Virus record (IMG/VR): IMGVR_UViG_651053023_000001
Span: 39,131 to 103,130 of that record
DNA length: 64,000 bases
Source of the DNA: a virus
Lineage: Duplodnaviria; Heunggongvirae; Uroviricota; Caudoviricetes
Strand: one strand, 5' to 3'
Within the stretch, counting starts at the first letter, position 1. The number at the start of each line of letters is the position of its first letter. Shown piece after piece: positions 6,001-9,000 of this stretch. The position numbers were made by a program.

Positions 6001-9000
6001 GTTCATCCGCAATCAAAGGTGTGAAGCGGGATTTGACGTCTTCGAGTAATTGTCGTGGTGTCATTGAAACCTCGTAGAATCTAGTTTGTTAACAGATTCT
6101 ACGAGTTGTCATTTGTGACAGTATGCTCGCAATCGTAGTGATTACTACCACCAACTGCTAGCTTTCTTCTCTCTAGCTTTTCCTTCGCTTTGCAGTAAAT
6201 CTTTACTTCCTGTAGAAATATTTCTATTTGCATCAGCCTCAGACTGAATTACATCTGTCTTAGCTGCTCTCTCCTTCAACTCCTGCTCTATAAAATCGTT
6301 TTCTCGCTGGACACGAGCCGCTTTTGCTTGCAGTTCGAGTTTCATGCTTTCGAGTTGCAGCTTGCGAAGCTCATCCTCATAAGCTTGATCTCGCTTCTTG
6401 TCATTTGCTAGCTCGGCTTCTCGTTTCGCTCTACGTTCATTTTCTGCAGCAACACGCTGTTTTTCGCGTGCAGCAGCGGCAGATGCTGCTTTTTCTCTTC
6501 TAATACGTTCAGCTTGTGCTTGTTGGCGAATAAGTTCTTTTCTGGCATCCTCAGCTTGCTGCTCTTTAGCTCGCCCTTCATTTTCCGCTTGAGCAATAGC
6601 AGCAATTTGACTTTGCAACGAGTTAGCCAAGGCAGTGCCTACACTAAACGTAGAAAAGATTAGAAATAAAATAATTTTATTCATAAATTATTTCTTTTCT
6701 GGACAAGTAGCATTTGGCTGAATTCGAGTTTCATTATCTTTAGTTGAAATAAGCACAGCAAGCCCCGTTGTAAACTGGCATGCTTTACCAACTTGAGTTG
6801 AAGTGAACACCTTAGTTCCTTCTTTATAAGTCAGTGAAACACCTTCAACAATTGTTTTATCACTAACCAAAGAACCAGCCGCTGCACCAAGAGCCGCACC
6901 ACCAGTACCGCCAGCTACAGCACCCAGTGTCGATGTGCCTTTAACATTATAACCGGCAACGCCCCCAGCAACAGCTCCCAGTACCGCACCAAATGTCTGT
7001 GCCGCTTCTTTATTAGCTTTATTATCAACTTTCACTTTAGCTGGAAGCACAGAGATAATATTGACTGTCTTTGTTTCCTGCTTCGAATTCAATTGAGCGG
7101 TATCATAAACATCGGCAGCATAATCAGCACCGCTAGATTGACACCCAGAAAGAAGAATTGCAGATACAACAAGAGCGCATAAAGTATACTTTTTAGACAT
7201 AAGAATCATCCCAGAAAAACAAAAACCGGCGAGAAGTTACCACGAGAACGGAAAGTAAACAAGAATACTCCCATTGACTTATATCAATTAATCAACTTTT
7301 TATAAGCTATCCCTAACTTATTGTGTATAGCTGAAAAGTCAGAGACAAGTTCACCATCTGCATTATTTCTTAAGTTAATAGTTTATTGCTAACTTAATTT
7401 ATGCATCGACTATTGATATCCATCTTAAAGTTACAATATCCCTCTGCATTATTTTTCATCACAAATAATATATCTATTGCACGACACTAACCTGCTCTAA
7501 TAAATTTGTATTTTTAAGTCGCGAATGCTATCTTTTCGCATCATATTGACCTTTTAATCGTTCAGGCTTATAGTTTCGCCGTCGTAGCAAATTCTGCGAC
7601 CGGGTTTAGCAGCCTGAATGATTGTGCGGACAGCCGCAGATATCCGATATTGCGGTATTTTTGTGTCCGTAAAACCGCGTTACGCCCAAATTATGGTGGG
7701 GCGTGATGGGGAGGCTTCGGCCTGCTGGTTTCACAATCGCCAGTCTGCTAACCCCGTCACGTCCTGCCACCTGTTTAGCAGCGGGTAGCAGGTTGTTAAA
7801 CCTGATTGTGAGGCCGTAACTATGGTTAATGCCAATCCTTGCGCACGCCAAGAATTCATCTGGCGTTTCTATTCCTGCAAAAAACACCACTATCACTTCG
7901 TCATCGCAGCAACAGAAGACGAAGCACGCTCTCAATTGCCTGATGGCCCCTGCATTTTTACTGCCCGTTTTTCAACTAACTCGCGCAATTCACTTAGTTA
8001 CTGGAACCTCCCCTTCTCTGCCGACGTTCAGGGGGGTTTATGAAAAAACCTCTCGTCACCCGTAATGAAATAGCCGAAGCGATCGCCCTGCATACAACCT
8101 GTATGCCGACACGGGAGATCCCCGGCGCAATTGCCAACTATTTCATGATAACCAGGCGTTTTTATACCCGAACAGATAAGGCTGTGATCAACAAGCTACT
8201 GATAGCCGAGATCAGGGATTATTTGATTGAACAAGGACGTCTACGTTACGCAACAGTGGCAGCAGAAATAAGAAAGGAGGCACATAGAATGACCGGTAAT
8301 AATTTGAATGTTGAAAAAACAGCACCTGTTACGTCAGCTACGCCAGCACCAGCCGTGAATATCATCCCCAACACCGGAGACACAATCGACAGCCAAACAT
8401 TGTTGAAGATGGTCAATGAGGCACGCAAGTTATGTGGAGAACCAGAGGTTAGAAACAATAAATTCATCGAAAAAATACTCGATGAACTTGAAGGTGAATT
8501 TTACACAAAAAGTGCAAAATCCCATGGCACAAGGGCTGGGCGCTCTTTTGAGGTCATCACCATGACCTACAAACAAGCCCTGCGAGTTGCCGCGCGCGAG
8601 TCAAAAGCGGTCCGCCGTTCGCTGATCGACAAACTGGAAGAATTACAGCAGGCAAACTCCCCTACCCCATCGATCCCCCAGACATTACCAGAAGCCCTAC
8701 GCCTGGCTGCCGAGTTAGCAGAACAGAAAATGCAGTTGGAACAACAGCTGGTGGCCGCAGCCCCTAAAGTCGATTTTGCCGACCGGGTATCAGTGGCCAA
8801 TGGAATCCTGATCGGGAACTTTGCAAAGGTCGTTGGACTTAAGCAAAACGCCCTTTTCTCATGGTTGCGCCAGAATGGCATTCTCATGGCTTTTGGAGCG
8901 CGCAAAAACGTACCGCGCCAACAGTACATCAACGCCGGGTATTTCACGGTGAAAGAAGTGGTGCTGGATGATGAAAATGGCTACCAGATACGGCTGACGC

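Follow-up and report, generated by a model that had tools for sequence, protein, structure and literature searches.

What keeps an essential late operon of a phage-plasmid from being expressed along with accessory genes that lie directly upstream of it and are read in the same direction? The question is raised by a stretch of viral DNA of 64,000 nucleotides (nt), called the window below (positions 39,131 to 103,130 of the IMG/VR record IMGVR_UViG_651053023_000001), which on its sequence is a P1/P7-type phage-plasmid. In the window an inverted repeat separates two accessory genes, for a DUF5384 signal-peptide protein and a lipoprotein, from the late tail operon pmgC-tub-pmgB-sit. An earlier note on this DNA had described the repeat as a perfect one of 10 base pairs (bp), cgtagaatct and agattctacg, in the leader of the operon, and had offered two roles for it, as a terminator insulating the upstream gene or as a regulatory site of a late promoter. 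P1 is a paradigm phage-plasmid, and its relatives bring resistance and other cargo genes into many Enterobacteriaceae.

We lean slightly toward reading the repeat as a device that protects the tail operon from outside transcription through fold-back of the RNA, in the manner of IS10. Two functional sites would be held mutually complementary, one comprising the spacer and -10 hexamer of the late promoter LPsit and the other the Shine-Dalgarno (SD) region of pmgC, the first gene of the operon. Messenger RNA initiated at LPsit would begin in the loop, and lacking the 5' arm it would have a short, unstructured leader of 25 nt from which pmgC is translated. Read-through RNA from the accessory genes upstream (sim in P1; the DUF5384 and lipoprotein genes here) would carry both arms and fold into a hairpin of 12-15 bp (-17 to -19 kcal/mol), in which the SD, and in some relatives also the AUG, would be buried. 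From such RNA, for example in a lysogen, pmgC would go untranslated, and the untranslated pmgC RNA may be shortened further by Rho-dependent polarity. A variable, independently expressed cargo slot could in this way adjoin an essential late operon without leakage of the tail genes.

The repeat proves to be larger than had been described. Its perfect arms measure 12 bp, CTCGTAGAATCT at 6071-6082 and AGATTCTACGAG at 6094-6105, and enclose a loop of 11 nt; the 10 bp reported before lie within them, and with two mismatches allowed the arms reach 18 nt (6065-6082 and 6094-6111, 89% complementary). Its location is as first described, between the secreted-protein gene (6145-6684) and the ATG of pmgC (6064), but only the downstream arm belongs to the operon leader, the upstream arm being the promoter itself. 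Three of the four bases of the pmgC SD, GAGG, fall inside the 3' arm, and the SD stands 5 nt ahead of the AUG at 6064. Dinucleotide-preserving shuffles of the window contain on average 0.08 perfect inverted repeats with arms of 12 bp or more and a loop of 3-20 nt, and one or more in 5.5% of cases; the real window has four such loci. The repeat is confirmed as real and not a product of chance. No copy of the 12-mer occurs in the 64-kb window beyond its own two arms. A search of Rfam 15 returned no family at the gathering score; the sole match, to the mir-10 hairpin (20.3 bits vs 47.5 required), is a chance resemblance.

The upstream arm coincides with a promoter that is already annotated. LPsit is recorded as a late promoter at the orthologous position in the GenBank entries of both P1 (AF234172) and P7 (AF503408), and it maps to 6096-6114 of the window with its -10 hexamer TAGAAT (6096-6101) inside the repeat arm, so the proposal of a late-promoter regulatory site came close to the mark. 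All 11 annotated P1 late promoters, extracted from the P1 record and aligned, have in common a module made of a -22 box (AAGTGACTT), 4 nt and a TANNNT -10, and the 9-bp repeat has been summarized in the literature as the site for Lpa (PMC10695390). On the minus strand the -10 of LPsit (6101-6096) fits TANNNT and is the same as that of LP26. In the P1 reference, LPsit reads AAATGACTA-CTCG-TAGAAT, with box and -10 both identical to LP26. The -22 box matches the consensus at seven of nine positions in the P1 reference and at six of nine in the window (AAATGACAA), which differs from the reference by this one further mismatch; the ATGAC core is invariant in the P1 clade and in the clade of Cronobacter phage JK004. 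In other respects the promoter of the window is like that of P1 and P7, with an orthologous position and sequence, a -10 TAGAAT preceded at 4 nt by a -22 box, no -35, and a place upstream of pmgC/tubA; annotation puts the P1/P7 promoter in the Lpa/SspA-dependent class. The hexamer at 17-bp spacing, ATACTG, matches TTGACA at one position of six and is not usable as a -35, and a scan of the minus strand at LPsit gave no sigma-70-like match. The shared element that the earlier note had proposed to look for at other late operons thus exists as the -22/-10 module, while the repeat itself is unique to LPsit.

Because the -10 lies inside the 5' arm, transcription from LPsit should start in the loop. 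Given where the -10 is annotated and a normal spacing for sigma-70, the start is expected about 7 nt past the -10, at A6090 or A6089, which corresponds to about 46601-46602 of the P1 record, and starts 5-9 nt past the -10 would all fall in the loop. The searched literature yielded no start-site data for LPsit and does not use the name, and a P1vir RNA-seq paper makes no mention of pmgC or sim. A divergent promoter on the plus-strand TAGAAT (6075-6080) was considered and rejected, since its would-be -22 box, CATTGAAAC, matches at four of nine positions and varies in relatives, and no sigma-70-like match was seen there. With LPsit already annotated, the general picture of P1 regulation is unchanged. 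The pairing of the -10 with the SD is absent from the P1 and P7 feature tables, where the interval from pmgC to the gene upstream of it bears promoter signals only and neither a stem-loop nor a terminator. The hairpin that couples this -10 to the SD was not found in the searched literature either, a scope that did not include the primary P1 genome paper.

The effect of the overlap on the RNA can be computed as an SD opening cost, the free energy required to unpair the SD window. Minus-strand RNA of 6040-6150 folds at -31.5 kcal/mol (z = -5.2 vs shuffles). When the RNA begins upstream of the repeat, opening the SD in the window costs 15.7-17.8 kcal/mol; for any start at 6089-6095 the cost is 3.7 kcal/mol. 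Random 11-nt windows of the same replicon have a mean of 5.1 (standard deviation 2.7) and a 99th percentile of 12.8, which the read-through cost in the window exceeds. The costs for read-through and promoter-initiated RNA are 16.9 vs 3.7 in the P1 reference and 18.3 vs 4.2 in JK004. The 3' part of the -22 box doubles as an imperfect outer extension of the 5' arm, and in JK004 the spacer between SD and AUG, GUUGGC, pairs with the -22 box region so that the stem runs through the start codon. Across six variants with different loops the hairpin keeps a stability of -17.3 to -19.2 kcal/mol.

Among the 11 P1 late promoters, the read-through cost exceeds the promoter-initiated cost by 13.2 kcal/mol at LPsit, by 7.9 at LPdar and by at most 3.6 at the other nine. 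At LPdar (P1 AF234172 31183-31230) a CCUCCU right after the -10 pairs with the AGGAGG SD of lydA, and SD opening costs 10.5 kcal/mol on read-through vs 2.65 when promoter-initiated. The sequence of this pairing is not conserved in JK004, where the opening costs (7.0 vs 2.9) are unremarkable; the 80 LydA-linked loci are all at least 99% identical and thus uninformative. Fold-back as a general rule of the P1 late promoters is unsupported, being large at LPsit and LPdar only, with the LPdar pairing lost in JK004.

Conservation of the hairpin was examined in 91 loci in which a full-length pmgC accompanies the block. They come from the window, from IMG/VR and GTDB contigs of the P1 type, from phage JK004 and from Salmonella plasmids, and 84 of them belong to the P1 clade. 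Within that clade none of 22 arm sites varies (6071-6081 and 6095-6105), vs five of 13 in the loop (Fisher p = 0.004); 76 of the 567 sites of pmgC vary. The spacer CTCG, which is variable among the P1 late promoters, is invariant at LPsit, where it pairs with CGAG of the SD. In the JK004/Salmonella clade the nucleotide identity of pmgC has dropped to 67-71%, yet the arms still agree at 22 of 24 positions (binomial P = 0.012). The two differences, TAGAAT to TAAAAT and ATTCTA to ATTTTA, make up a single compensatory pair, G-C to A-U. The loop of that clade is unrelated in sequence and shorter (8 nt), and its perfect arms span 13 bp. A pattern scan of IMG/VR, in which exactly the two compensating positions of the block were left open, gave 100 matches, divided into 95 with G/C, five with A/T and none uncompensated. 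By formal count 94.5% of cells are paired, vs 29-46% in slid registers, and two pairs have changed on both sides. At the loop-proximal pair two variant types have a G-U, which is tolerated only in the sense-strand RNA. The independent events are few but agree in direction, and on this comparative evidence the pairing of the arms is under selection.

The block itself, ACAAATGAC, is preceded by at least eight unrelated contexts, including sim genes, the DUF5384 and lipoprotein genes and others. In all of them the adjacent open reading frames (ORFs) run in the same direction as pmgC, stopping 3-157 nt ahead of the block; most of these ORFs have a hydrophobic, signal-like N terminus, and one context is interrupted by an IS1-like insertion. 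In the window a scan of the interval from the DUF5384 gene to the promoter (6112-6144) found no terminator-like site, and read-through transcripts would likely originate in the DUF5384 and lipoprotein genes. Phage D6, Serratia and Pantoea elements and two IMG/VR contigs have pmgC directly after bplB, with neither LPsit nor the hairpin. The promoter, the hairpin and a foreign upstream module therefore occur together, which is evidence from co-occurrence but not from covariation.

The proposed mechanism is of a known kind, here applied to a phage late operon, and the repeat is probably a functional element. Fold-back arrangements similar to that of IS10 occur in IS50 and other insertion sequences. 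Davis, Simons and Kleckner, writing in Cell in 1985, reportedly found that fold-back inhibition shields IS10/Tn10 from being activated by promoters outside the element. The leader hairpin of IS200 tnpA, which sequesters the SD, is related (PMC4513863). In IS10 the SD is part of the 3' arm, with the 5' arm upstream of the element's own start site or spanning it, and LPsit, with its start expected in the loop, would match this. Only foreign read-through transcripts fold in IS10, so that only they are translationally silent, and the same is predicted here. The gene protected in the window differs, being the first of a phage late structural operon and not a transposase gene. A further difference is that the -10 hexamer of an activator-dependent promoter serves as the 5' arm, and the effect in the window is a computed one.

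Several points weigh against fold-back protection. The -22 box of the window, at six of nine positions, is by itself no better than chance, with 48 whole-pattern matches in the window vs 49 expected when up to three mismatches are allowed. The start site, read-through and the Lpa dependence of LPsit all come from annotation or inference. The architecture is not general, since LPdar alone of the other ten P1 late promoters shows a large effect. The covariation amounts to essentially two independent events, and a symmetric DNA site would covary in the same way; the conservation of the arms is also partly owed to the -10 and the SD themselves. Finally, some upstream contexts seem to have a terminator-like GGGTTTTTT tail of their own, which would make insulation redundant there.

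It is unlikely, although it survives better than the other alternatives, that the hairpin acts on the transcripts of the upstream genes instead, whether as a weak or factor-assisted terminator or pause, as a 3'-end stabilizer or as an RNase III site that splits the accessory from the tail mRNA. A stable stem of 12-15 bp, reaching about 20 bp in JK004, immediately follows co-directional genes, and a stem of this length is within the range accepted by RNase III; selection on pairing would fit equally well. The Rho-independent terminators that stand between the moron genes and the late operons of phages offer a parallel, as they too place a stable hairpin directly after independently expressed accessory genes, where insulation is needed. 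They differ in that the repeat has no U-tract, a relatively AT-rich stem with 5/12 G-C pairs, a loop of 11 nt (4 nt if inner pairs are counted) and an overlap with the SD of the next gene. The sequence that follows the stem is GGUUUCAAUG in the window and P1 and GGUUGGCAUG in JK004, with no U-tract either way, and the consensus terminator scan passed over the site. The terminator proposed in the earlier note is, in the usual sense of the word, not supported; the idea of insulation was probably right in spirit, with occlusion of the SD in read-through RNA taking the place of transcription end. The element also stays with pmgC while the upstream genes are swapped, which would be odd for a device serving the upstream mRNA, and an action on that mRNA would not account for the exact placement of the SD in one arm, the 3' one, and of the -10 in the other.

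Improbable is a role of the repeat as a DNA operator, in which a dimeric protein would repress LPsit by binding both of the 12-bp half-sites that span its -10 and start site. A perfect palindromic pair over the -10 and +1 occupies the classic place for a repressor, and symmetric covariation of the arms is expected of a symmetric operator too. A fixed dimer is poorly served by half-sites whose centers are 23 bp apart in the P1 clade and 21 bp apart in the JK004 clade, with a loop free in length and sequence. The absence of a second 12-mer from the 64-kb window and the loop-proximal G-U pairs, acceptable in the sense-strand RNA alone, also speak against an operator. The consensus of the C1 operator is unrelated, and we know of no candidate protein that would bind the repeat.

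A slightly poorer prospect still is complementarity with no function of its own, arising as a by-product of a constrained -10 and SD or left over from a local duplication or inversion. Each arm is partly constrained in any case (TAnnnT and GAGG). On the minus strand the -22 box and spacer at 6102-6113 (AATGACAACTCG) and the start of pmgC at 6054-6065 (AATGACACCACG) form a direct repeat that agrees at 10 of 12 positions; this may be a trace of local duplication, and to that extent it favors a remnant. Most of the 12 pairs have no role in promoter or SD, among them CTCG, the inner positions of the -10 and, within the leader, AGAUUCUAC. The compensatory change and the absence of uncompensated variants among the 100 matches are unexpected without selection on pairing; arm identity of 22/24 against a background of about 70% has P = 0.012.

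A mini-ORF of 7 codons lies at 6089-6112 on the minus strand, ATG ACA ACT CGT AGA ATC TGT TAA (MTTRRIC*), with its ATG (6112-6110) in the -22 box and its TAA (6091-6089) in the loop. That its translation on read-through RNA would melt the 5' arm and permit translation of pmgC can be given hardly any credence: the length is 7 codons in every variant, and the stop keeps the same alignment columns despite differing loops, as TAA in the P1 clade and as TGA in that of JK004, but this is a post-hoc observation on two clades, no SD precedes the ATG in any upstream context, the upstream stop codon lies anywhere from about 11 to 160 nt away, and the ATG is part of the Lpa box (A/G)TGAC and probably a side effect of it.

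Returning to fold-back protection, a wider version of it would treat the promoter and hairpin block as a dedicated "insulating joint" and the sim locus as a freely exchangeable cargo slot; this is possible, if rather doubtful. If it were true, any gene expressed in the lysogen could be plugged in before the essential tail operon, and the choice of promoter, not termination, would decide whether pmgC is translated. A more exotic addition would have the 7-codon mini-ORF that ends in the loop tune the switch.

Further observations concern the exchange of genes around the block. Homology between the window and the P1 reference ends at about 6116, and in P1-type genomes generally it breaks a few bases upstream of the -22 box (about 6112-6120), a junction that marks a cargo-exchange hotspot. 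The contig IMGVR_UViG_2913167280_000003 has two promoter/hairpin blocks 1.4 kb apart (4275-4310 and 5670-5705), each preceding a pmgC-like start (MTQRQLL... and MTPRQLL...), an arrangement that suggests recombination or duplication anchored on the block. In D6, Serratia, Pantoea and the two IMG/VR contigs, pmgC directly follows bplB/pmgG/gene 21. The immunity and lytic-replication block that lies between them in P1 therefore has the look of an insertion into an ancestral tail operon, which it would have split. The short D6 gap before pmgC holds a GC hairpin, CCCGCC cttgt GGCGGG.

Table 1. Features of the repeat, the promoter and the adjoining genes, in window coordinates.
Feature	Position	Strand	Remarks
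-22 box of LPsit	6106-6114	minus	AAATGACAA; presumed Lpa-binding element; orthologous in P1 and P7
5' arm	6094-6105	minus	CTCGTAGAATCT, made up of promoter spacer CTCG (6102-6105), -10 TAGAAT (6096-6101) and CT
Loop	6083-6093	minus	GTTAACAAACT; LPsit start expected within
3' arm	6071-6082	minus	AGATTCTACGAG; overlaps pmgC SD GAGG (6070-6073)
SD-to-AUG spacer (GGUUUCA)	6065-6070	minus	imperfect outer stem extension; pairs with 6106-6111
sit	203-3898	minus	late tail operon pmgC-tub-pmgB-sit
pmgB		minus	between tub and sit in the late tail operon
tub	4876-5487	minus	late tail operon
pmgC (tubA in P7)	5498-6064	minus	first gene of the late tail operon pmgC-tub-pmgB-sit; annotation of AF234172 and AF503408
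DUF5384 signal-peptide protein gene	6145-6684	minus	accessory; co-directional; upstream of pmgC
Lipoprotein gene	6688-7209	minus	accessory; co-directional; upstream of pmgC

These features (Table 1) lie in a P1-type setting. Over 1.4 kb around the repeat the identity is 100% to Punavirus P1 MH422554 and 98.4% to phage P7, and the PmgC protein of the window is 100% identical to PmgC of P1-type phages; a Pfam search with PmgC and Tub found no family, and by tblastn 692 plasmids of PLSDB match PmgC. The sim slot is occupied by simABC in the P1 reference and, in the window, by the DUF5384 and lipoprotein genes. The lipoprotein (6688-7209, minus strand) contains a glycine-zipper segment and has a weak, sub-threshold resemblance to TraT (23.1 bits vs a cutoff of 31). 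TraT is a lipoprotein of surface exclusion and complement resistance, and with a TraT-like lipoprotein in the sim slot, an exclusion function replacing Sim would fit.

Other hairpins lie far from the tail operon. At 63305-63347 a perfect 17-bp inverted repeat (TGGCCAACAACTCACAG ... CTGTGAGTTGTTGGCCA) with a 9-nt loop stands directly after a TTGACA and about 640 bp before a lox-like sequence at the end of the window; it has no exact match in the P1 reference. Two more are found at 45553-45584 and 55470-55509, one of them a perfect 12-bp repeat (ATAGAGGGAATC / GATTCCCTCTAT) and the other, AAAATCCCCTC ... GAGGGGATTTTT, with the look of a bidirectional terminator; the P1 reference matches neither exactly.

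If fold-back protection holds at LPsit, the essential late operon of a P1-type prophage would remain silent despite accessory genes without a terminator directly upstream of it. The -10 of the promoter would double as an anti-Shine-Dalgarno, and only activator-driven transcripts would be translated. A device of insertion sequences would thereby be extended to the control of phage late genes, and it would help to explain why the sim slot is a hotspot of gene exchange.

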